Below are positions 4,351 to 42,264 of a DNA stretch of 42,999 nt, piece after piece. The position numbers were made by a program, and so were the translations under genes. Under the pieces are notes generated by a model, which saw only the letters and a list, made by a program, of their open reading frames with translations, searched no databases and was not told the DNA's origin. Every line of letters starts with the position of its first letter. Positions within the stretch are counted from its first letter, which is position 1. The stretch comes from Kagunavirus LM08P2. The stretch lies in the sequence record OZ035738.1. One strand, given 5' to 3'.

Positions 4351-4378
4351 AAAGGCCCCATTACGGGGCCTTAGTTTT
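4351..4378. terminator. Bidirectional intrinsic terminator between convergent genes
   Basis: AAGGCCCC-ATTAC-GGGGCCTT hairpin flanked by A-run upstream and T-run downstream, between + gene ending 4348 and - gene ending 4377. Confidence 0.6.
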
Positions 4379-4622
4379 ATCGCACTCTCATAAATAGCTT
4401 ACCTTTGCGCTGTAACAAATCCATGCCAACTGCACCTTCACCAGATTTGTTCGGACGGCGCATTAAACTAAAGTTCCATACTCTAGCTTTTGAAGCATCT
4501 TTCGCATTGCACACCCAAAGTCTGCCGCTTTCTCTTAGGTCAAATAAGTCCGATATACTGAAATTATTAACCGGTATGAACCCGCTAATGAACTCACGTT
4601 CGCAACTAGGTAATTCCTGCAT
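4377..4622 (-). CDS. Hypothetical protein, opposite-strand insert in head module
   Basis: 81-aa ORF on minus strand with strong SD (GAGGAGGG) upstream of ATG at 4622 and its own promoter at 4649-4677. Confidence 0.5.
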   Translation of the reverse strand: MQELPSCEREFISGFIPVNNFSISDLFDLRESGRLWVCNAKDASKARVWNFSLMRRPNKSGEGAVGMDLLQRKGKLFMRVR

Positions 4623-4648
4623 ACACCCTCCTCGTTTCGATGTAATGA

Positions 4649-4677
4649 ATAGTACCCTATTATATTGGTGTGTGCAA
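4649..4677 (-). promoter_or_regulatory. Sigma70-like promoter, family 2 (TTGCAC-N17-TACTAT)
   Basis: Read on minus strand: TTGCACACACCAATATAATAGGGTACTAT; near-identical copies at 13790-13818(-), 36393-36421(+), 37829-37857(+). Confidence 0.5.
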
Positions 4678-4743: not shown

Positions 4744-4772
4744 TTGACTTTTCACTAAAAATGTGCTAAGCT
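4744..4772 (+). promoter_or_regulatory. Promoter TTGACT-N17-TAAGCT (TG-extended), copy 1
   Basis: TTGACTTTTCACTAAAAATGTGCTAAGCT; nearly identical sequence at 36084-36112. Confidence 0.5.
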
Positions 4773-4779
4773 CCACCTG

Positions 4780-4978
4780 AGCTTGTGAAGTATGAACAAG
4801 CGACCGCGGCGCGGGCAGGTAACGGAGCGGGACGTAAGTCCTGAGTGTAGTTACGCTGACGCGTTCGGAAGGGCCATACTCTATTGCTTGTGTAAAAAGT
4901 AACTGGTTTACTGAGATTACGCCGTTTCTATGTTTAAATGATAAGGACTAGCGCCCCGCTTTATGGCGGGGCTTTACT
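4780..4978 (+). ncRNA. Candidate structured noncoding RNA / leader element, copy 1
   Basis: About 110 nt downstream of the promoter is conserved with the copy at 36119-36230; contains hairpins with compensatory differences between copies; no ORF conserved between copies; ends at a GC-rich hairpin plus T-run at 4951-4978. Confidence 0.45.
4951..4978 (+). terminator. Intrinsic terminator
   Basis: GCGCCCCGC-TTTATG-GCGGGGC followed by TTTACTT, immediately upstream of the spanin RBS. Confidence 0.55.
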
Positions 4979-11994: not shown

Positions 11995-12242
11995 AAATGG
12001 CTCTCATCTATAAGAACGATAACTGCCGAAATCGAAACGGCACCTACATATAAAAGACGCATCTCGGTCGGCGCTATAGCGGTAACAGCTTCGTACAGGC
12101 CCGAGAACACGGACAAATCCATAGAGATAAATGTTAAGACCGCCGCCATTCCTAGTACCGCGGTGGATAAAACCAGTAAAACCAGTAAAACCAGTAAAAC
12201 CACAACAGGCATTATGGCGAAAATCCACAAGGCTTTAATCAT
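11991..12242 (-). CDS. Small membrane protein with VLL repeat
   Basis: 83 aa, two hydrophobic segments; N-terminal (VLL)n tract encoded by a 9-bp tandem repeat; ATGA overlap with upstream gene. Confidence 0.5.
   Translation of the reverse strand: MIKALWIFAIMPVVVLLVLLVLLVLSTAVLGMAAVLTFISMDLSVFSGLYEAVTAIAPTEMRLLYVGAVSISAVIVLIDESHL
12173..12199. repeat. 9-bp tandem repeat CCAGTAAAA x3 perfect (plus partial flanking copies)
   Basis: Read directly; in frame within the 11991-12242 gene, encoding repeated Val-Leu-Leu. Confidence 0.85.
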
Positions 12243-13369
12243 CCCAGCATCTCCGGTGAAATAGTTAAACGTGCGACCTCGCCATATTCGGCGCTATAAG
12301 TAATTACATTTGCGCTACGACCCGACATCCAGCCGCCTCTGGAGGCGTAGGCGTCTTTAGCCGCTAAGGTTCGATGTTGCTCGACAACCATGTTACGGCT
12401 TTCTACAATCTTTTGATGGTGCAGGTGGCCTACGTGGGCGTAGCTGTAAACACTCTCGCCGAACGCTTTGCGGAACTTAGCTATCATAATTGGTTCGATA
12501 GCGTCGAAGCGTGCTTTATGTCCGTGGTGAAAGAACAGCGTCGTTTTGCCGTGTTGGACCATCTTGTAAACATCCGGCGACGTATCGACGAACACACGCG
12601 GCTCATTGTCGTACAGCGTACTGAACATCTCAGCTAACCAAATCATTCCGCTCTCGTCGTGGTTCCCTTGCACAATAAGCAAGCGAACATTTTTATGTTT
12701 AACCAGCGCCATATCGATAACACGGCGGACCATACGAATCATGTAGCGGACCAGTTTCTGATAGCGCGTGTCAGCGTCAAGAACATGACCACTCGCCGGT
12801 GTAACCGCATCCAGACTATCAAAGTGTGCGAAGTCCCCCAGCAGGTTAATAACTCCTGTTCCTGCATCTGGTGCTTTCTGAAACGCAGCATCGAACCACC
12901 GAGAGAACAGGTCTTCCGCAATCTTCATGTCCCAGTCGTCGCCGCTCTCGTCGGCCCAGGCAAGCATACCGAGATGGAAATCAGATACCGTGTAAAGATT
13001 GAGTAGCTTGTCGTCGCGTTTGGCTCGAGTCGCTTTAGCCGGCGCAACTGGCGTAATCTCTGACTTCATGCCTTCAATCACGGCTTTCATCAACTCGACC
13101 TGACGTTCAGCGTCGGTGTCTGTCTTAACCCATTGCAACTTAGTATTGCCGAACTCGTCTACCAGAGACGACGTCCCTTTAATCTTGTAGCCGTCTGGGA
13201 CAAGGTGGCTAACGTCGCGCCCGTGGCCCACGCCTTTCTTAGCCAGCTTCGCTTTACGGATACGAATAACGCGGTCTGAGATGCCGTATTTACGGGCTAT
13301 ATCGATATTCTTCATTCCGGCGTTCAATTCTTCCTGTAACTGTTCGTCGGTTATTTTCTTCCGGGCCAT
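12239..13369 (-). CDS. HTH-fused calcineurin-like metallophosphoesterase (SbcD/Mre11- or CpdA-like fold)
   Basis: Motifs in order DFHLG, GDFAHFD, GNHD, HHGH, GHLHH match the metallophosphoesterase signature; N-terminal ITDEQLQEELNAGMKNIDIARKYGISDRVI looks like a helix-turn-helix; likely start ATG 13369 with SD GAGGAAG (track start 13420 lacks an SD). Confidence 0.6.
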   Translation of the reverse strand: MARKKITDEQLQEELNAGMKNIDIARKYGISDRVIRIRKAKLAKKGVGHGRDVSHLVPDGYKIKGTSSLVDEFGNTKLQWVKTDTDAERQVELMKAVIEGMKSEITPVAPAKATRAKRDDKLLNLYTVSDFHLGMLAWADESGDDWDMKIAEDLFSRWFDAAFQKAPDAGTGVINLLGDFAHFDSLDAVTPASGHVLDADTRYQKLVRYMIRMVRRVIDMALVKHKNVRLLIVQGNHDESGMIWLAEMFSTLYDNEPRVFVDTSPDVYKMVQHGKTTLFFHHGHKARFDAIEPIMIAKFRKAFGESVYSYAHVGHLHHQKIVESRNMVVEQHRTLAAKDAYASRGGWMSGRSANVITYSAEYGEVARLTISPEMLG

Positions 13370-13434
13370 GCTTACTTCCTCGTGTTTAGGATTTGTCCTA
13401 TTTAACCACAGTGCATTCATTTAAATAAAGGCGA

Positions 13435-13761
13435 CTATTTACTTTCCACGCCTATCGCCCACCCAGTCATTACCATTTGCAGACGGGTAGCTGTTAGTAG
13501 GCTGTAGAACGCGTCCCCGTTTTTCTCTACTGAACGTATCACCGTGTATGTTACGGCTTGCGGGGGTAGACCCGATTTACCAACCTCTACGGCGGCCTCA
13601 CACTCACGAACTGTAGAGTCCTTGAATGCCTTTACAATAGTAGGGTCAGCTTTCTTAAGCACGCCAGAAGTCATAAGAACAGATTCGCTAAATACCTGTT
13701 CGCACGGAGATCCAAAAGTAGCAAAAGACATAAACCCCAGAGCTAATACTAATTTACGCAT
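13435..13761 (-). CDS. Secreted/periplasmic small protein
   Basis: 108 aa; N-terminal signal-peptide-like MRKLVLALGFMSFATFGS; SD GAGGA; first gene downstream of promoter 13790-13818. Confidence 0.5.
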   Translation of the reverse strand: MRKLVLALGFMSFATFGSPCEQVFSESVLMTSGVLKKADPTIVKAFKDSTVRECEAAVEVGKSGLPPQAVTYTVIRSVEKNGDAFYSLLTATRLQMVMTGWAIGVESK

Positions 13762-13789
13762 AATTATTTCCTCAGTAAGTTACAAGTGA

Positions 13790-13818
13790 ATAGTACCCTA
13801 TTATATTGGGGTGTGCAA
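13790..13818 (-). promoter_or_regulatory. Sigma70-like promoter, family 2
   Basis: On minus strand TTGCACACCCCAATATAATAGGGTACTAT; drives the 13761-to-11764 cassette. Confidence 0.5.
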
Positions 13819-32347: not shown

Positions 32348-32836
32348 TTATTCTTCTTCGAAATACTTGTTCTTGATTGCCGTCAGGCGTTCCAGGTATT
32401 CGGCCAGGTCTTCGTCTTTAATCGCGGCAATCTTCATCTTCTTACCGGTGAACTCTTCCAGCAGTTCATCGGAATCATCGCACGCGGCATCGCTCGGACC
32501 TTCATTAATCGCATCGTCGATAGCCTGAATCTGATCACGAAGAGACTGGTAATCGACTTCTTCTTTCTCTTCTTGCGGCTCTGGCGTTGGCTCCTCTACT
32601 TTAGGTTTACGCGGCTTGCGTTTCGGCTTCTCTTCTTCTGCCGGTTTAGTGTCGACGAGGTCTTCACCTTCTACCGTGATTTCTTTTGTCGCTTCTTTCG
32701 CAACAACATCACGAACACTATCTGCGATGTTTGCATCTGCCTTAAGTTCATACACAGGTTTTTTCGCGCTATTCGCAGCAATCAGTTCATGCGCAACTAC
32801 GAAACGTTCCAGTAATTTTAAGAATTGGTCTAACAT
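32348..32836 (-). CDS. Highly acidic protein with central basic/Pro-rich linker
   Basis: 162 aa; D/E-rich termini with KPKRKPRKPK segment; first gene downstream of promoter 32868-32897; SD GAGGAG. Confidence 0.45.
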   Translation of the reverse strand: MLDQFLKLLERFVVAHELIAANSAKKPVYELKADANIADSVRDVVAKEATKEITVEGEDLVDTKPAEEEKPKRKPRKPKVEEPTPEPQEEKEEVDYQSLRDQIQAIDDAINEGPSDAACDDSDELLEEFTGKKMKIAAIKDEDLAEYLERLTAIKNKYFEEE

Positions 32837-36083: not shown

Positions 36084-36112
36084 TTGACTTTTACTTAAAA
36101 ATATGCTAAGCT
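36084..36112 (+). promoter_or_regulatory. Promoter TTGACT-N17-TAAGCT (TG-extended), copy 2
   Basis: TTGACTTTTACTTAAAAATATGCTAAGCT, nearly identical to 4744-4772. Confidence 0.5.
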
Positions 36113-36118
36113 TCACTG

Positions 36119-36353
36119 AGCTTGTGAGATATCGCAAGCGACCGCGGAGCGGCAGGGAACGCAACGCGTGCCATTAGGCACTTGAGTGTAGTTCCGCTGG
36201 CGCTTTCGGAAGGGCCAAAGTCTATTGTTAATCCCGCCTAAATACCCAAGTCACTGATAATTAAAAGTTTCTATAGTTGCCGTAAGCAAGGTGGAGAGTA
36301 CTTCACTCCGCTGGGGTGGGCTAACGCCCACCCACTGCGTTGCGTACTCTTTT
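36119..36353 (+). ncRNA. Candidate structured noncoding RNA / leader element, copy 2
   Basis: Conserved with 4780-4886 over about 110 nt; no ORF; GC-rich hairpin GGGTGGGC-TAAC-GCCCACCC at 36313-36333 enclosed by GAGAGTAC/GTACTCT and followed by TTTT. Confidence 0.45.
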
Positions 36354-36392
36354 AAGAAACGAAAGAATCACAACGGCAACGTAACTTTTCTC

Positions 36393-36421
36393 TTGCACAC
36401 ACCAACATAATAGGATACTAT
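36393..36421 (+). promoter_or_regulatory. Sigma70-like promoter, family 2
   Basis: TTGCACACACCAACATAATAGGATACTAT upstream of 36456 gene. Confidence 0.5.
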
Positions 36422-36455
36422 TCACTTATAGAAACGAGACAGAGGAGTGAGGGTT

Positions 36456-36644
36456 ATGTTTAAACGTGGTCAGTTGGTTAAAGCTGTAAATAGCAATTAT
36501 TTCATTGTTGAAAGCGAGTCTGCAGTTTTTCCGGGGGCTTATAGGGTAAGTTTTCTCGGGGAAAGATTAGGAGCAATAACCTGGTTCCGTGGAGATGAGC
36601 TAACACTCATCGGCAACAATTTTAAATTCAAAGGGGCGAAGTGA
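36456..36644 (+). CDS. Hypothetical early protein
   Basis: ATG with SD GAGGAG (track start 36447 is GTG). Confidence 0.4.
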   Translation: MFKRGQLVKAVNSNYFIVESESAVFPGAYRVSFLGERLGAITWFRGDELTLIGNNFKFKGAK

Positions 36645-36898
36645 TGGAAGAATTAATTTGTATTGAATCCAGCCAGGATGTGCAGGATTGGTTTGTTAAA
36701 GGTAACAGATATTCGTCCGGAGTATATTCCGACGGCCGTCGATATGTTTTAGACGAAGACGGTGATGAATGGGATTTAAATGACGATGTAAGAGAAACTT
36801 TAACCGTTAGCAGGGTCAATGCTGTTTCTGCCTCATTCACAACGGCATCGAATCATGATGCTCGTGCCGACGACTCTGAGGGAGGTTGCCGTGAATAA
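36644..36898 (+). CDS. Acidic hypothetical protein
   Basis: 84 aa, Asp/Glu-rich; TGATG overlap coupling. Confidence 0.4.
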   Translation: MEELICIESSQDVQDWFVKGNRYSSGVYSDGRRYVLDEDGDEWDLNDDVRETLTVSRVNAVSASFTTASNHDARADDSEGGCRE

Positions 36899-36946
36899 TT
36901 ACCCGTTTATTTTAATAGTCAGCGCCGTTTATGTGGTGCATGCGTT

Positions 36947-37180
36947 ATGGGGGCTGGTATGAGAAAACACATAATAAAGGTAGACCATCTGGACGGAGTT
37001 AAATTGCCGACGAATAAAGTAGAAACGTGGTGTGGGGCCACTCCATCGTACGGTGAATGGCTGTTCCAGGATGCTCAACACGCCTTAATTGCTGTAGAAA
37101 ACGGATTCAGGCAAGAGCCTTGCGCACAGTGTTTATCCGCTATCGCCCAGATCGCAACTCAGGCGTTAAGTGAGGACTAA
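36947..37180 (+). CDS. Hypothetical protein
   Basis: 77-aa ORF; alternative start ATG 36959. Confidence 0.35.
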   Translation: MGAGMRKHIIKVDHLDGVKLPTNKVETWCGATPSYGEWLFQDAQHALIAVENGFRQEPCAQCLSAIAQIATQALSED

Positions 37181-37183
37181 GTT

Positions 37184-37327
37184 ATGAGAGAAGCATTCGA
37201 ACGGTGGGCCGTCGTCGAGGGTCTGCCGGTTAACAAGGGTTCGAAGAAAGAGTACCTGAACGTTAAGACGCGTCTCGCGTGGCGGGCGTGGAAAGCTGGT
37301 GTGTTGTTTATCGCGAATCGGAGGTGA
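37184..37327 (+). CDS. Small hypothetical protein (47 aa)
   Basis: Hand-translated MREAFERWAVVEGLPVNKGSKKEYLNVKTRLAWRAWKAGVLFIANRR; SD GAGGAC. Confidence 0.35.
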   Translation: MREAFERWAVVEGLPVNKGSKKEYLNVKTRLAWRAWKAGVLFIANRR

Positions 37328-37330
37328 TTT

Positions 37331-37516
37331 ATGGGTGAGTGGATTAAGTGTAGTGAGCGGATGCCTGAGCCTTATGAATACGTTCTTGTAACTGATTGTT
37401 TTGTTGGCTGTGAGGTTATGCGTGTTAATTCAGATGGCTACTGGGGGCCTGCAAAGAGTTTATATCACGGTGATATAACGCACTGGATGCCGTTACCTGA
37501 GCCGCCGGAGGTGTGA
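37331..37516 (+). CDS. DUF551-like protein
   Basis: 61 aa; EWIKCSERMPE...VLV...ITHWMPLPEPP matches the DUF551 pattern common in enterobacterial phages. Confidence 0.6.
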   Translation: MGEWIKCSERMPEPYEYVLVTDCFVGCEVMRVNSDGYWGPAKSLYHGDITHWMPLPEPPEV

Positions 37517-37650
37517 TGTTCAATAGTTTGGGATTTTACTGAGTGACTTACGCTGCTACACAGCAGCGTACAACTTTAGATTAGTGTCGTCAAAAAGCGA
37601 CACTTCCACCAAACGAAACAATAGGAGCGACTATTGCAGGAGACGCAACA

Positions 37651-37821
37651 ATGAAACTGAATGACATCGTAACCTGGACTGGTAGAAACGGAGAAAAGCG
37701 ATTCGGGCTTATTGTTGCGTCAGACGGCAACAAGTACCGTGTTATGCGATGGCGTCAGTGGGCACGACGCCCGAGGTACTACTGGATTCGTGGCGAACGA
37801 TTATCTTTAAAACACCAATAA
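37651..37821 (+). CDS. Small hypothetical protein (56 aa)
   Basis: Hand-translated ORF with SD GCAGGAG. Confidence 0.35.
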   Translation: MKLNDIVTWTGRNGEKRFGLIVASDGNKYRVMRWRQWARRPRYYWIRGERLSLKHQ

Positions 37822-37828
37822 AATTTAC

Positions 37829-37857
37829 TTGCACACACAGATATAATAGACTACTAT
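37829..37857 (+). promoter_or_regulatory. Sigma70-like promoter, family 2
   Basis: TTGCACACACAGATATAATAGACTACTAT upstream of 37887 gene. Confidence 0.5.
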
Positions 37858-37886
37858 TCAGTTATCGAAACGAGAGGAGAGAGAAG

Positions 37887-38024
37887 ATGGGCTGGTACGG
37901 TAGCTGGGCATTAGGTGAACTGGTAGACGCTTACGAAATAATGGGTAGCACTTCGGTATGCGACGGTGACACTAAATCGCTGCTAGTCGGGGTCGATGAG
38001 AAAAGGGGTGAAGACGATGAATAA
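37887..38024 (+). CDS. Small hypothetical protein (45 aa)
   Basis: ATG with strong SD AGAGGAGAGAGAAG; the track ORF 37749-38024 is the same frame with an unlikely upstream extension. Confidence 0.4.
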   Translation: MGWYGSWALGELVDAYEIMGSTSVCDGDTKSLLVGVDEKRGEDDE

Positions 38025-38172
38025 TTTCGTGGTGCAAGCAATGTACGCTGAGGAAATGGCAAAAAGTATGTTAGAGCAAACATTACATTTCGCTAAGCTG
38101 CAAGGGTTCGACGTACAGACAGTAGGCGACGAAATAGTATTGACCGAGAAGTCGGAGAACGGTGATGAGTAA
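38017..38172 (+). CDS. Small hypothetical protein (51 aa)
   Basis: Hand-translated ORF overlapping neighbours. Confidence 0.3.
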   Translation: MNNFVVQAMYAEEMAKSMLEQTLHFAKLQGFDVQTVGDEIVLTEKSENGDE

Positions 38173-38638
38173 CAACGACGCAGTAATCGAGTTCCTGCTT
38201 AACCAACTACGGCAGCAGTTAACTAACAACCCATACAAGCAACAGTGCGAAGACCTGGCCCATGAGGTGCAGTCACTTAAGAATCAGTTACGTGATATGT
38301 CGGAGCTGGTGGACGAGCTACTCGGGACAATAACGCTAATGAACGGGGATGTAGAGGCGTACAAAGTTCTACGCAAAGGTGGGTACGTTAATGGGGGTCA
38401 GCGATACGTAGTAGGAGAACACGGACCTGAGCAATCTGGTTGCCGTAAGGAAGACGTTCAGGAATGCGTGCACGAGTGGGCGCTTGATGAAAAAGGTGAC
38501 TACTTCGTTTGCACTAAATGCGGTAAGCAAGAGGCGGAATTGAACGATTGCCAACACACTAATACCGTTGGTTTGCGTAAGGGTTTTGCGCCGGGGTTTA
38601 CTATAAAGTGCCTGGATTGCGGGGCTAAACTGAGATGA
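38165..38638 (+). CDS. Zinc-ribbon protein with N-terminal coiled coil
   Basis: Cys pairs CTKCG and CLDCG plus CVHEW/CQH in C-terminal half; ATG 38165 (track start 38162 is GTG). Confidence 0.45.
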   Translation: MSNNDAVIEFLLNQLRQQLTNNPYKQQCEDLAHEVQSLKNQLRDMSELVDELLGTITLMNGDVEAYKVLRKGGYVNGGQRYVVGEHGPEQSGCRKEDVQECVHEWALDEKGDYFVCTKCGKQEAELNDCQHTNTVGLRKGFAPGFTIKCLDCGAKLR

Positions 38639-38838
38639 CCAGCATCCTCTTTATCTGGGTATTGTCCGCAGGCCAGATGCACCTGGCGGCCTCAGAAACG
38701 TTTTACTCGATGGAGGCGTGCCAGTCAGCGGCACGCGCCGCAGAGAACGCGCACTTCCTGTTTCAGGGCGACAAGCCAAACGATTCGGAGGTACGTGCTA
38801 TCTGCTCACCTAAGCGACTTGGTAAACAGGAGAAATAA
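38635..38838 (+). CDS. Small protein with signal-peptide-like N-terminus
   Basis: 67 aa; MTSILFIWVLSAGQMHLAAS hydrophobic N-terminus. Confidence 0.4.
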   Translation: MTSILFIWVLSAGQMHLAASETFYSMEACQSAARAAENAHFLFQGDKPNDSEVRAICSPKRLGKQEK

Positions 38839-39131
38839 TGTCTCTGGCAACTGACATCCTGAAACGAAGCGGCCTTGCGCCGCTGTCGCCGAGAGCGAAC
38901 ACCCGGATGCACAAGCGCCGAGGTAACGCGCTGTACCCCGAGATTCAGGCCAGACGCAAAGCTGTCCGCGCCTGCGGATTCCAGAACGGGAAGGCCGTGA
39001 ATCTCGGTGAGTTTAAAACACAGGAACGCGCAGCTATCGCTAATCGGCTATTTAATTACTGGAAATCGCTGGGGTACGATGATATTCCGACGAAACCGCA
39101 GAGACGGCAATACATCTGGAGACACAAATAA
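38838..39131 (+). CDS. Hypothetical basic protein
   Basis: 97-aa ORF with SD CAGGAGA. Confidence 0.4.
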   Translation: MSLATDILKRSGLAPLSPRANTRMHKRRGNALYPEIQARRKAVRACGFQNGKAVNLGEFKTQERAAIANRLFNYWKSLGYDDIPTKPQRRQYIWRHK

Positions 39132-39206
39132 ACCGTTATTAGGATAATTCCTACCCGTGGTATCCTCCAGTTACTGCATACTTAATACGCACCTGGAGGA
39201 TTCATC

Positions 39207-39515
39207 TTGGATAAATTTACTGAAACAGTGACGGGCTGGCTTCTCGCTGCCGCACTCGCCGGAGGGGTCATCGGACTACGACAACATAAGTCCGTTATTT
39301 CTGGCCCTATCGACGGCTTCTGCTTCATCGCTACTGGTTTCGCCTGCGCCGTATTTGGCGCCCCTCTTGCAGCTCAATGGTTCGGTATCACGGGCGACCG
39401 TGAAATCGCTGGCCTGGGCTTTATCATCGCTATTCTCTGGATGCCTATCTATTCCCGCCTCTCCGGTATCGTCGCCGGGGAATACATCTCACGTCGAGGA
39501 GGCCCGGATGAATGA
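39207..39515 (+). CDS. Holin (three predicted TMDs)
   Basis: 102 aa with three hydrophobic segments; TTG start 6 nt after SD GGAGGA; immediately upstream of endolysin. Confidence 0.5.
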   Translation: MDKFTETVTGWLLAAALAGGVIGLRQHKSVISGPIDGFCFIATGFACAVFGAPLAAQWFGITGDREIAGLGFIIAILWMPIYSRLSGIVAGEYISRRGGPDE

Positions 39516-39780
39516 GCTATTCTGGTTCGCCGTAATGTTGGCAATCGGGGGCGCATCGCTGTTTAATGTGTATCACCCCTGCGTGGACGACGGATTATTT
39601 GGTCGGGTGCTCTATATCCTGACTGCTATCGTCTGCGCTGCCGGATGCATCCACCTGTTACATGGCAGCATGTCGCCAACGCTGCCTGAGACATTAATCA
39701 CATTAGTCGCGCTGCGCCAGATTCGTCAGGCGTGGCTGTCATACGGAGGGCATAAGCGTGTCTCGAAACATTTCAGATAA
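39508..39780 (+). CDS. Second small membrane protein of lysis cassette (holin/antiholin-like)
   Basis: ATG 39508 with SD GGAGG; two hydrophobic helices; between holin and endolysin. Confidence 0.4.
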   Translation: MNELFWFAVMLAIGGASLFNVYHPCVDDGLFGRVLYILTAIVCAAGCIHLLHGSMSPTLPETLITLVALRQIRQAWLSYGGHKRVSKHFR

Positions 39781-40243
39781 TGGATTGCATTTCACCGCTG
39801 CGTTCGAGGGATTCCGCGGAACTGCGTACCGCGCTACACCGAATGAGAAGTACCTGACTATTGGGTACGGAAGCTATGGCCCGCATGTTAAGGCTGGACA
39901 GACCATCACACCAGGACAGGGCTTGCTGTTACTGAATCGCGATATGGCTAAGGCTGTAGCTGCGGTTGATGCAGCGGCACACCATTCATTAACACAGGCG
40001 CAGTTCGATGCAGTGTGTGACCTGGTGTATAACGCGGGCGCCGGCGTGATTGCGGCTACTACAGGCACGGGTAAGGCCCTGCGTTCCGGTGATATTCCGA
40101 CGCTGCGGGCTAAGCTGACGCTGTTCATCAACCAGAACGGCAAACCGTTACTCGGCCTGCGTCGCCGTACCGCAGGCCGCCTGGCGCTGTTCGATGGTAA
40201 GCCGTGGCAAGAGGCTGAGGCTATCGGGAGGGCTGTTAAATGA
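39758..40243 (+). CDS. Endolysin, GH24 lysozyme (T4/lambda R-like)
   Basis: 161 aa; N-terminal LHFTAAFEGFRGTAYRATPNEKYLTIGYG matches the phage lysozyme catalytic region; probable GTG start. Confidence 0.75.
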   Translation: MSRNISDNGLHFTAAFEGFRGTAYRATPNEKYLTIGYGSYGPHVKAGQTITPGQGLLLLNRDMAKAVAAVDAAAHHSLTQAQFDAVCDLVYNAGAGVIAATTGTGKALRSGDIPTLRAKLTLFINQNGKPLLGLRRRTAGRLALFDGKPWQEAEAIGRAVK

Positions 40244-41834: not shown

Positions 41835-42067
41835 TTACCAGCATCCCTAAACTGATTGAAGAGTACGGAAGTATGTCGGAGACTTGCCGACAAACCGGTA
41901 TCTGCGAGATGACGATTGCCAAGTACAGCAAAGACGTGAACTGCGAGCGCCACGTAATTTATAACAATCGTCTGATGACGCATGTTAAGACAAGCCCGGT
42001 ATTATTCACGCGCCGTGGTATCACTAAAACAGAGCAACGCGTTGCTAGAGAGGAGAGTGGGGGATGA
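41831..42067 (+). CDS. Putative DNA-binding protein
   Basis: TTG start after SD AAAGGAGAG; SETCRQTGICEMTIAKYSKD resembles an HTH. Confidence 0.4.
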   Translation: MITSIPKLIEEYGSMSETCRQTGICEMTIAKYSKDVNCERHVIYNNRLMTHVKTSPVLFTRRGITKTEQRVAREESGG

Positions 42068-42264
42068 GCGAAAAACTATTGTTACTTATGCTGCATACGC
42101 TTCTTGACGACAACGGGCAGGTGGTATTCCAGTTTATCGGGCGCGATGACCTCCTAATCGACGTCTCTGATGGAACATTTGCTATTGGCGACGAGTTTGT
42201 AGAAAGAGGGGATGCGTTCCAGTATCTAAGCGATAATTACGACGTACTGGTAGATATTTGCTGA
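42064..42264 (+). CDS. Highly acidic small protein
   Basis: 66 aa with many Asp/Glu and no basic cluster. Confidence 0.4.
   Translation: MSEKLLLLMLHTLLDDNGQVVFQFIGRDDLLIDVSDGTFAIGDEFVERGDAFQYLSDNYDVLVDIC

Follow-up and report, generated by a model that had tools for sequence, protein, structure and literature searches.

A hypervariable accessory-gene region of small genes upstream of the lysis cassette in a Kagunavirus coliphage

The window analysed here, a stretch of 42,999 nucleotides (record OZ035738.1), derives from a Kagunavirus (Guernseyvirinae) coliphage. The genome is about 98% identical to those of phages LM08P1 and AV104, in which the gene order is identical and the cluster genes are annotated as "hypothetical proteins". 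On the rightward arm of this virulent phage, flanked on one side by replication and regulator genes that point leftward and on the other by the lysis cassette, twelve short, tightly coupled genes fill positions 36456-39131 of the + strand. They lie behind a 48-nt promoter and leader module that is present in two copies. This agrees with the dense cluster of about twelve small rightward ORFs described in an earlier sequence-only reading. The features are as follows.

36393..36455, + strand: promoter P1 ('family 2') and leader; TTGCAC, 17 nt, TACTAT
36456-36644, + strand: g1, 62 aa, basic, matching phrog_12538
36644-36898, + strand: g2, 84 aa, pI 4.19
36891-36962, + strand: g2b, hydrophobic peptide of 23 aa, GTG start
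36959-37180, + strand: g3, 73 aa, variable cassette, matching phrog_4090
37184-37327, + strand: g4, 47 aa, basic, matching phrog_15836
37331-37516, + strand: g5, 61 aa, pI 4.5, DUF551 domain protein
37549..37636, + strand: intergenic hairpins closing the first operon
37651-37821, + strand: g6, 56 aa, very basic, variable cassette, matching phrog_9384
37829..37886, + strand: promoter P2 ('family 2') and leader; TTGCAC, 17 nt, TACTAT; palindrome 37845-37858
37887-38024, + strand: g7, 45 aa, pI 4.05, variable cassette
38017-38172, + strand: g8, 51 aa, pI 4.28, rare orphan
38165-38638, + strand: g9, 157 aa, coiled coil and two zinc-ribbon modules, matching phrog_6094
38635-38838, + strand: g10, 67 aa, hydrophobic N-terminus and two cysteines, matching phrog_3766
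38838-39131, + strand: g11, 97 aa, pI 11.2
39207..40243, + strand: lysis cassette, with PHROG holin and endolysin matches and Pfam PF00959 (holin 39207-39515; second holin 39508-39780; lysozyme-type endolysin 39758-40243)

Adjacent genes overlap by 1-8 nt or are separated by 3 nt, with two exceptions: the g5-g6 gap of 134 nt contains the hairpins, and the g6-g7 gap of 65 nt contains the second promoter. Searches of Pfam, PHROGs, NCBIfam and PADLOC placed no cluster protein in a functionally characterised family, and none was similar in sequence to solved anti-defence proteins; g7 and g8 had no sequence match to a solved structure of any kind. A DUF551 protein and a zinc-ribbon protein had been named in the sequence-only reading and both were recovered. 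Indeed, g5 matches Pfam PF04448 over profile positions 1-68 of 68 (58.5 bits with a cut-off of 22, E 1.2e-15), and g9 carries two C-x-H...C-x-x-C zinc-ribbon modules. The N-terminal coiled coil of g9 is conserved; after it come the modules, written EQSGCRKEDxQEC-H-W...C-x-x-C-G, of which relatives have one to three. Among 1.84 billion proteins, 63 represent this family. The same reading had counted two acidic proteins. Acidic proteins are present, though their number was set too low, since g2, g7 and g8 have pI values below 4.3 and that of g5 is 4.5. Only 4 clusters of g8 were found among 5.8 billion proteins; it has no PHROG match, and its Pfam matches are all below threshold. The hydrophobic N-terminus of g10 is predicted to be a signal peptide or a membrane anchor, and g10 is probably an envelope protein serving the phage itself. 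The predicted structure of g11 combines a beta-hairpin and a helix, and its top three fold matches are all AP2 domains; at E up to 0.1, g11 matched no Pfam family, AP2 (PF00847) included. The AP2/ERF-like appearance of the model suggests DNA binding. The protein is probably a DNA-binding regulator that adjoins the lysis genes and serves the phage itself.

P1 and P2 resemble sigma-70 consensus promoters. The two 'family 2' promoters noticed earlier are real repeats, positions 36392-36439 and 37828-37875 being 85% identical. Four copies of the promoter and leader motif occur in the window, as compared to 0.00 expected. The palindrome AATAG-N4-CTATT, which covers the -10 of P1 (36409-36422), occurs seven times as compared to 0.01 expected, always inside a promoter-like site. 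The leader of P1, AAACGAGA...GAGG, bears a ribosome-binding site, and P1 is present in 35 of 42 relatives' loci. The hairpins that close the first operon (folding z -3.3; 39 of 42 loci) are located at 37549-37570 (hairpin 1), 37583-37604 (hairpin 2) and 37619-37636 (hairpin 3, CAATAG-N6-CTATTG). Hairpin 1 is a canonical T-tract terminator in most relatives, where it is followed by TCATTTTTCTCATTTTTG; its T-tract is degenerate in the window phage.

Upstream of the cluster, a further promoter-like site heads a structured leader.

36084..36112, + strand: promoter-like site P0; TTGACT, 17 nt, TGn-TAAGCT (extended -10)
36113..36227, + strand: structured leader RNA, copy 1; hairpin 36120-36139, bulged hairpin 36142-36209, conserved single-stranded tail
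36309..36339, + strand: GC-rich terminator-like hairpin between leader and P1; -23.9 kcal/mol, z -3.2

P0 is conserved in 31 variants from relatives and was missed by a simple promoter scan because its -10 hexamer fits only 3 of the 6 consensus positions. A paralogous second copy of the leader RNA lies at 4744-4886; the two copies are 80% identical and share the same fold. Among 21 variants, the 26 pairs are 95.8% paired and 7 of them have changed on both sides. The covariation value was 0.284, as compared to 0.132 after shuffling (0 of 500 shuffles reached 0.284) and to 0.016-0.068 with slid partners. This confirmed conserved pairing in two paralogous two-stem RNAs downstream of promoters. 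The leader RNA, which had no match in Rfam and occurs twice per genome, is previously unreported. A T-run is found about 15 nt downstream of the hairpin at 36309-36339; the hairpin that relatives have at this site, GGTGCC-TTCG-GGCACC with a T-rich tail after it, is unrelated. Behind the second leader copy lies a canonical terminator (4953-4972), directly 5′ of the first gene of the capsid-tail operon. Each copy stands at the head of a rightward unit; for copy 1 this unit spans the accessory cluster and the lysis genes, and for the second copy it is the capsid-tail operon.

When about 40 relatives were compared, the region appeared as a row of cassette slots, in which conserved islands of 60-180 nt separate differing bodies. 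The islands are the promoters, the gene-end junctions, the g4 gene and hairpin 1, which most relatives have as a canonical terminator. The gene-end junctions supply the next gene with its ribosome-binding site and with a stop/start overlap. The best example is the following.

36840..36895, + strand: junction element J2, about 55 nt, encoding the g2 tail TTASNHDARADDSEGGCR

Any gene placed downstream of J2 receives from it a ribosome-binding site, GAGGGAGG, as well as the stop/start overlap. The identity of J2 is about 95% across 31-32 of 40 loci and, in 11 relatives' loci (12 with the window) where the flanking genes are unlike, the element is nearly invariant at all codon positions, the third included. 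Folding of the J2 RNA was not significant (z -0.46).

Between these islands, gene content varies widely. Nearly universal are g4 (32 of 33 relatives), the most conserved gene of the first operon, g10 (30 of 33, with 92-100% identity in most of the 30) and g11 (32 of 33), a core gene. Usually present though diverged are g1 (27 of 33, alleles of about 40% identity), g5 (28 of 33, diverged alleles with conserved ends and a variable middle) and g9 (30 of 33, diverged alleles). The others are sporadic: g2 (this allele in 7 of 33), g2b (11 of 33), g3 (4 of 33), g6 (6 of 33), g7 (11 of 33 and phage Bas71) and g8 (4 of 33). The three most acidic proteins are among them. Since g10 and g11 form a near-invariant core and g9 is nearly always present, if divergent, these three are not variable accessory genes. 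Across 34 loci, 66 protein clusters were found. Each interval between neighbouring anchors showed 13-30 different lengths, as compared to only three for the g11-to-holin gap (42 loci). In many relatives, the space between g10 and g11 holds extra cassettes, and that between g11 and the holin an HslV-like gene. Close relatives were thus confirmed to differ in gene content while their flanks are conserved. Overall, the region is a hypervariable accessory-gene region in which small genes are swapped cassette-like among relatives.

The sequence-only reading had taken such clusters as sites of counter-defence genes. This agrees with Silas et al. (bioRxiv 10.1101/2023.04.06.535777), who describe phage accessory regions as hotspots in which variable genes, often for counter-defence, are concentrated. 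As in those regions, a block of small, fast-changing genes lies between core genes and its content differs among relatives. However, no gene of the ocr, ral or abc2 type is recognisable in the window or in the scanned cassettes, and the slots are split here by unusually regular junctions that carry expression signals. More generally, neither the window nor ten alternative cassettes taken from relatives yielded a recognisable gene with a proven role in counter-defence; scanning of these ten gave no known anti-defence or takeover match, an HslV-like peptidase being the sole recognisable protein. A generic reading as accessory, host-interaction genes is plausible.

We propose that host RNA polymerase would transcribe the region from P1 and P2, acting as portable promoter-plus-leader modules, with a possible contribution of P0, whose transcript would start with the structured leader RNA. 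ORF bodies would be exchanged between co-infecting relatives through homologous recombination at the islands, as the conservation pattern of the junctions suggests, so that every phage would end up with a small-protein set of its own. Most likely, the sporadic cassettes g2, g2b, g3, g6, g7 and g8 would be independent, dispensable binders of host or rival-phage proteins, with proposed roles in counter-defence, host takeover or exclusion. The conserved members, among them the putative regulator g11 and the putative envelope protein g10, would serve the phage itself. We lean towards this explanation, an accessory arm with two promoter modules, slots recombining at islands, and sporadic binders beside a phage-serving core, and consider it somewhat probable.

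One sporadic cassette could be followed further at the level of its predicted structure. The g2 model is a six-stranded beta-barrel (residues 1-67) followed by a low-confidence tail, and the fold search returned Gp54 of phage Bas11 together with SH3-like domains. The predicted topology is that of the six-stranded small beta-barrel of Gp54 (PDB 9axb). The structural alignment shows 10% identity, and a profile built from 30 g2 homologues gave no hit to 9axb at E up to 10. The two proteins differ in that g2 has an additional 17-residue tail, and their phages belong to Guernseyvirinae (g2) and Drexlerviridae (Gp54). From the model, we infer that g2 belongs structurally with Gp54. Gp54 of Bas11 is recognised by the bacterial immune sensor CapRel (Zhang et al., Nature 2024, PMC11578894), and its close homologues from Bas5, Bas8, Bas10 and SECphi27 do not trigger CapRel (PMC11578894). 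By analogy, g2-type barrels could be counter-defence factors and immune triggers at once, as proposed for Gp54. An elongated fold displaying carboxylates in a DNA-like manner was also considered for g2 and rejected, the predicted model being a compact six-stranded barrel.

Other explanations of the cluster were weighed. That the small ORFs are mostly non-coding filler or annotation artefacts between promoters could be argued from the size of several of them (below 60 aa), from the lack of any known function and from g2b being unannotated in the GenBank record of AV104, the one relative's record checked. We consider this hardly credible. Synonymous codon differences with relatives equal or exceed non-synonymous ones in all genes but g1 (12:14), g9 having no usable alleles. 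The synonymous to non-synonymous counts are 386:78 for g10, 654:227 for g11, 84:36 for g4 and 23:8 even for the 23-aa g2b, in which one relative carries an in-frame 3-nt insertion. In addition, ribosome-binding sites precede the start codons, starts overlap the preceding stops, and PHROG families exist for 10 of the 11 cluster proteins scanned, all but g8. A more specific idea is that the acidic g2, g7 and g8, with the products of 42064-42264 and 32348-32836, are DNA mimics that block restriction or DNA-binding defences, like Ocr, ArdA or T7 Gp5.9. Like DNA mimics, these proteins are strongly acidic (pI about 4.2, 4.05 and 4.3 for g2, g7 and g8; 4.05 and 4.5 for 42064-42264 and 32348-32836). 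Like Ocr (T7 gp0.3) and ArdA, g2, g7 and g8 are small and probably early-expressed; their genes lie behind sigma-70-type promoters and have the sporadic distribution among relatives that is frequent for counter-defence genes. However, for g2, the sole acidic protein modelled, this proposal of the sequence-only reading was contradicted by a predicted compact barrel of the Gp54 type, without sequence or fold similarity to Ocr or ArdA. The acidic residues of g2 are spread over the barrel and over the low-confidence tail, which corresponds to a conserved DNA junction. No Pfam hit was obtained for g2, g7 or g8, and sequence and profile searches of solved structures found no Ocr/ArdA-type protein. 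Furthermore, BASEL phages carrying a g2 allele (Bas71, Bas75, Bas76) or g7 (Bas71) are reported to be restriction-modification sensitive: the BASEL Kagunavirus isolates are reported as highly sensitive to restriction-modification, and their sensitivity to Old as variable (PMC11990801), so that the relatives tested show no sign of a broad counter-defence. We therefore regard DNA mimicry as improbable.

The timing of expression bears on how the second half of the cluster is understood. 'Early' timing would follow from the promoter sequences only. The sole transcriptome of a relative, that of phage K1B4, is multi-cycle and coarse; it lists four early genes, of which only a leftward HTH gene is named, and classes the lysozyme as middle (PMC12645636). 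P2 and g7-g11 may instead belong to a lysis operon of the middle or late class, in which g9-g11 would control lysis timing or late transcription, leaving the first operon alone as early and accessory. Several observations favour such an arrangement besides the middle class of the K1B4 lysozyme. A terminator scan from P2 to the holin-holin-endolysin genes detected none, and only 75 nt separate the end of g11 from the holin start. The conservation of g10 and g11 is about equal to that of the lysis genes, and the most divergent relative (L031) has no homologues of g1-g9, yet beside its holin g10 (92%) is retained together with a g11-like gene (36%). Finally, g10 has its hydrophobic N-terminal segment, and g11 looks DNA-binding. 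On the other hand, P2 is the same strong module as P1 and stands directly 5′ of the sporadic g7 and g8, g9, g10 and g11 match no lysis-related family, and the two intervals that separate g10, g11 and the holin take up insertions in relatives. We judge the lysis-operon arrangement to be rather unlikely. The leader RNAs open another view, in which the cluster is not a simple early unit and the two leaders (36113-36227 and 4773-4886) form an undescribed RNA-based antitermination switch gating late expression in Guernseyvirinae; this idea is tentative, and we give it a minor chance. As in putL and putR of HK022 (PMC9378689), there are two paralogous copies with two stem-loops, each lying just 3′ of a sigma-70 promoter, with a terminator or terminator-like hairpin after it. 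The leader is about 95 nt long, as compared to about 70 nt for put, and the two are likened by layout alone, any shared function being wholly inferred. Such a switch could work without factors, as HK022 put does, or a phage protein could act on it, for example the conserved basic g11 or the zinc-ribbon protein g9.

Returning to the accessory-arm explanation, the architecture also recalls the lambdoid phages, in which mosaic gene exchange occurs at conserved boundary sequences (nin and b regions, 'morons'). Sharp transitions from linkers to unrelated bodies are common to both, as are promoter-plus-gene modules at several genome sites. In contrast, the present phage is a virulent siphovirus, its linkers are short ends of coding sequences which also serve as ribosome-binding sites, and a single 48-nt promoter and leader is reused four times. 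One of these module copies (4646-4677, - strand) precedes, and would drive, a gene of 81 aa whose product is, by eye, homologous to a cassette occupying the g2 slot in one relative (L004).

A megablast search with 36200-39400 matched 353 phage records, the best being Kagunavirus LM08P1 (98.0% identity over 100%) and Escherichia phage AV104 (98.2% over 88%), both of about 43 kb. AV104 and EF2-1 share one layout: leftward genes for a helicase-primase, a small ORF product and an HTH regulator precede a rightward series of 'hypothetical proteins', after which come two holins and a lysozyme-type endolysin. From these matches and this layout, the window is assigned to Kagunavirus (subfamily Guernseyvirinae), as a virulent siphovirus. 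The small-gene block is flanked on one side by the divergent control region and on the other by the lysis cassette. Relatives were compared using 40 IMG/VR loci running through the holin gene, two GenBank loci and four BASEL phages; presence counts rest on the 33 loci spanning the whole region.

Features of the window
4377-4622, minus strand: gene of 81 aa
4646-4677, minus strand: family-2 promoter driving the 81-aa gene
4744-4890, plus strand: second copy of the structured leader
4953-4972: canonical terminator after the second leader copy
12239-13761, minus strand: genes of a 108-aa signal-peptide-like protein and a 393-aa protein
13787-13818, minus strand: family-2 promoter driving these two genes
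36084-36230, plus strand: first copy of the structured leader, 147 nt
36309-36339: strong terminator-like hairpin (z -3.2) after the first leader copy
36393, plus strand: P1, family-2 promoter
36456-39131, plus strand: twelve small genes, g1 (62 aa), g2 (84 aa), g2b (23 aa), g3 (73 aa), g4 (47 aa), g5 (61 aa), g6 (56 aa), g7 (45 aa), g8 (51 aa), g9 (157 aa), g10 (67 aa) and g11 (97 aa)
about 36840-36895: J2, junction element encoding the g2 tail
37549-37570: hairpin ending the first operon
37829, plus strand: P2, family-2 promoter
39119-39148: weak promoter-like site before the holin gene
39207-40243: holin-holin-endolysin lysis cassette

The sequence-only reading had described a dense rightward cluster of about twelve tightly coupled small ORFs. 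Twelve plus-strand genes could indeed be reconstructed, filling 36456-39131 exactly. Neighbours overlap by 1-8 nt or are spaced by 3 nt, save at two gaps, a hairpin-rich one of 134 nt after g5 and a promoter-holding one of 65 nt after g6. A purine-rich ribosome-binding site lies upstream of every start codon. We regard these ORFs as real genes, 23-aa g2b included, because, compared with relatives, codons differ synonymously at least as often as non-synonymously (g10, 386:78; g11, 654:227; g4, 84:36; g5, 30:6; g6, 41:21; g7, 31:26; g3, 23:20; g2b, 23:8) in all but g1 (12:14), g9 being unscored as it has no near-full-length ungapped alleles. One relative has an in-frame insertion of 3 nt in g2b, whose product is hydrophobic; AV104, the only GenBank record checked for this gene, leaves it unannotated. 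The individual labels of the sequence-only reading stood as well: g5 matches DUF551 (Pfam, E 1.2e-15), the zinc-ribbon protein g9 consists of a coiled coil and two C-x-H...C-x-x-C modules, the N-terminus of the signal-peptide candidate g10 is hydrophobic, and, with pI values of 4.05-4.3 for g2, g7 and g8, acidic proteins number more than the two it had named.

The genes differ widely in their distribution. Near-universal are g4 and g11 (each in 32/33 loci) and g10 (30/33), while g9 is found in 30/33 (27-72% identity), g5 in 28/33 and g1 in 27/33 (about 40% identity). The others are sporadic, with g2 in 7 of the 33 loci, g2b in 11, g3 in 4, g6 in 6, g7 in 11 and g8 in 4. A per-position map showed that conservation alternates sharply along the region, with few or no relatives alignable between the following islands and conservation throughout from 38610 onward.

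Islands of about 95% identity
36360-36470: P1
36600-36660
36840-36900
37170-37350: g4
37470-37650: hairpins
37800-37890: P2
38160-38300: N-terminus of g9

Nearly every interval between anchors had 13-30 distinct lengths; the g11-to-holin gap had only three. Clustering the region's ORFs from 34 loci gave 66 clusters. On the simplest reading, the islands would provide the homology at which cassettes recombine. The clearest junction is J2, where the final 20 codons of g2 hardly vary at any of the three codon positions. It is kept across loci whose upstream proteins differ, and the downstream genes differ too; at two loci a g1-type protein takes the upstream place, fused to this tail. J2 ends with GAGGGAGG, then a stop/start overlap, so that any incoming gene receives a ribosome-binding site. 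Two other explanations for this conservation were discarded. As a functional peptide, the tail would not account for synonymous sites that are invariant between unrelated flanks, and an RNA structure is at odds with the absence of a significant fold in J2 (z -0.46).

The 9-mer GGTTGCCGT occurs six times in the window (18939, 20666, 34514, 34572, 36884 and 38438) against 0.45 expected; one copy encodes 'GCR' in the g2 tail and another does so in the g9 linker. Comparison of the six contexts revealed no wider common motif, so the excess is treated as probably due to chance. The g9 linker itself, 'EQSGCRKEDxQEC' (38430-38460), is an island of nucleotide conservation preceding each zinc-ribbon module, and may be a recombination point altering module number.

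The two family-2 promoters ascribed to the cluster were recovered as a 48-nt direct repeat, 85% identical. Their motif (TTGCAC, 17 nt, TACTAT, with a palindrome over the -10 element) recurs at four places in the window (0.00 expected): at P1 and P2 and on the minus strand at 4646-4677 and 13787-13818. Three family-1 promoters (TTGACA, 17 nt, TATAGT), all leftward in the replication module, carry the palindrome in the spacer. Overall, AATAG-N4-CTATT is present at seven positions (4648, 13789, 26587, 30251, 32873, 36409 and 37845), against 0.01 expected, and every copy lies inside a sigma-70-like promoter. This palindrome is probably the shared operator of a phage regulator. A related palindrome, AATAG-N6-CTATT, is seen at 37620-37635, just upstream of g6.

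Each of the two minus-strand family-2 copies drives a leftward insertion within the structural region. The first insertion consists of the 81-aa gene at 4377-4622; a cassette occupying the g2 slot of one relative (L004) looks homologous to it when the sequences are compared by eye, and this cassette ends with the conserved g2 tail. If the homology holds, the promoter-leader module and its cargo cassettes would move between family-2 sites. In the other insertion, the gene of the signal-peptide-like protein comes first, and the 393-aa protein behind it shows HTH-like and metallophosphoesterase-like motifs (GDxxHxD, GNHDE) in a domain reading by eye. This insertion lies within the tail-gene region and could serve in exclusion or defence.

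The cluster had also been called early. The part of that claim that stands is the promoters, whose resemblance to strong host-polymerase promoters suggests early expression; three observations complicate it. The hairpin at 37549-37570 ends the first operon, its T-tract being canonical in most relatives and degenerate in the window. From P2, a terminator scan detected no terminator up to the holin-holin-endolysin genes; conservation of g10 and g11 is similar to that of the lysis genes, and L031, the relative that diverges most, retains only g10 and a g11-like gene, adjoining the holin. Finally, in phage K1B4, the only relative with a transcriptome, sampled over 120 minutes, the leftward HTH gene is named among four 'early' genes, as the sole early gene named, and the lysozyme is 'middle' (PMC12645636). 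Across 40 relatives, the 75-nt gap before the holin gene (39131-39207) shows 96-99% conservation. Features of this gap, which could be a control site for the lysis genes, are a weak promoter-like site (GAGACA, 18 nt, GATAAT) and an inverted repeat, AGGATA-N14-TATCCT.

Searches of Pfam, PHROGs, NCBIfam and PADLOC assigned no cluster protein to a family of known function, returning only DUF551 and PHROGs of 'unknown function'. Solved structures gave no meaningful sequence match for g2, g7, g8, g9, g11 or the g2 profile. A match of g2 to the 'Cake' designer propeller (E 0.004) was judged compositional, as no stretch passes alone, and one of g9 to Pfam Lar_restr_allev (E 0.72) was taken as noise. 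Guilt by association failed too: ten alternative cassettes from relatives yielded only an HslV-like peptidase, DUF7438 and one 'internal head protein' PHROG. The peptidase (162 aa; phrog_1040, E 1e-39) is absent from the window and lies between g11 and the holin gene in about ten relatives (L006, L008, L010-L013, L016, L017, L025 and others). A search of 1.84 billion proteins gave 63 representatives of the g9 family, in which a conserved coiled coil at the N-terminus precedes one to three 'EQSGCRKEDxQEC-H-W...C-x-x-C-G' zinc-ribbon repeats. Among 5.8 billion proteins, g8 is a near-orphan with four clusters and the g2 family has 48, the long contigs among these measuring 42-46 kb. g11 is probably an AP2-like regulator.

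The acidic proteins had been put forward as candidate DNA-mimic inhibitors, a class that includes Ocr and ArdA. Their acidity, their placement behind strong promoters and their sporadic distribution among relatives all favour this idea. However, an AlphaFold2 model of g2 built with 30 homologues (mean pLDDT 80.8) predicts a barrel of six strands across residues 1-67, with a low-confidence tail. A fold search matched this model to Gp54 of phage Bas11 (PDB 9axb), a protein sensed by CapRel (PMC11578894); the likeness is structural only, since the g2 profile misses 9axb by sequence. The predicted beta-barrel argues against mimicry by g2, as does the lack of similarity to solved inhibitors in structure-database sequence searches with g2, g7, g8 and the g2 profile. 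Moreover, BASEL Kagunavirus isolates are reported to show high sensitivity to restriction-modification and variable sensitivity to Old (PMC11990801), and some carry alleles of these genes: g2 in Bas71, Bas75 and Bas76 (88-89% identity over 56 aa) and g7 in Bas71 (89%). g8, g3 and g2b are absent from all four BASEL phages compared. DNA mimicry is not supported for g2; g7 and g8 are still candidates for it. Two ORFs outside the cluster proposed alongside it are acidic as described (42064-42264, pI 4.05; 32348-32836, pI 4.52), and database searches including Pfam and PHROGs gave no informative matches for them.

The g2-type fold is seen in many uncharacterised enterobacterial-phage proteins of 63-80 aa, mostly from small siphoviruses. 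The match to Gp54 suggests that small siphoviruses widely share a predicted barrel family that one bacterial immune protein is known to sense. Overall, this is a phage accessory region of an ordinary sort, though a tidy example; the instance is newly described, the kind is already known. What the analysis adds is the cassette-and-junction architecture, the likeness of g2 to Gp54, the probable AP2-like regulator and, beside the region, the structured leader RNA in two copies. That the six sporadic cassettes are counter-defence or host-takeover genes is a prediction, reasonable as a prior and unproven. As Kagunavirus phages are small, common and represented in BASEL, their accessory region offers a practical supply of small proteins that interact with the host. 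The division into sporadic genes (g2, g2b, g3, g6, g7 and g8) and core genes (g4, g10 and g11, with which we group the always-present but divergent g9) can guide screens. The regular layout of promoter, junction and cassette marks natural insertion sites for payload genes.

The leader RNA lies within a 380-nt control region upstream of g1, and its second copy, on the same strand, is 80% identical. Both copies begin with a promoter-like site (TTGACT, 17 nt, TGn-TAAGCT) and fold into a short hairpin, a 2-nt linker, a long bulged hairpin and a conserved single-stranded tail. A pattern scan found the element in 53 IMG/VR stretches, often twice per 41-45 kb contig, as 31 distinct variants. Across 21 variants, the 26 pairs were 95.8% paired, and seven pairs were altered on both sides. 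The covariation score was 0.284, compared to 0.132 for shuffles (0/500 reach it) and 0.016-0.068 for slid partners, and G-U pairs mark the plus strand as the folded one. Rfam held no match to the leader: nothing in the window reached gathering scores and nothing relevant appeared near the leader at E up to 10. The terminator after the second copy directly borders the ribosome-binding site that serves the capsid-tail operon's first gene, and in some relatives an unrelated hairpin with a T-rich tail replaces the one at 36309-36339. This layout of promoter, structured RNA and terminator resembles lambda PR'-6S-tR' and, in its two copies, HK022 putL/putR (PMC9378689). Hypothetically, the leader may be an antitermination device, put-like or of the Q/N type, or a small RNA gene.
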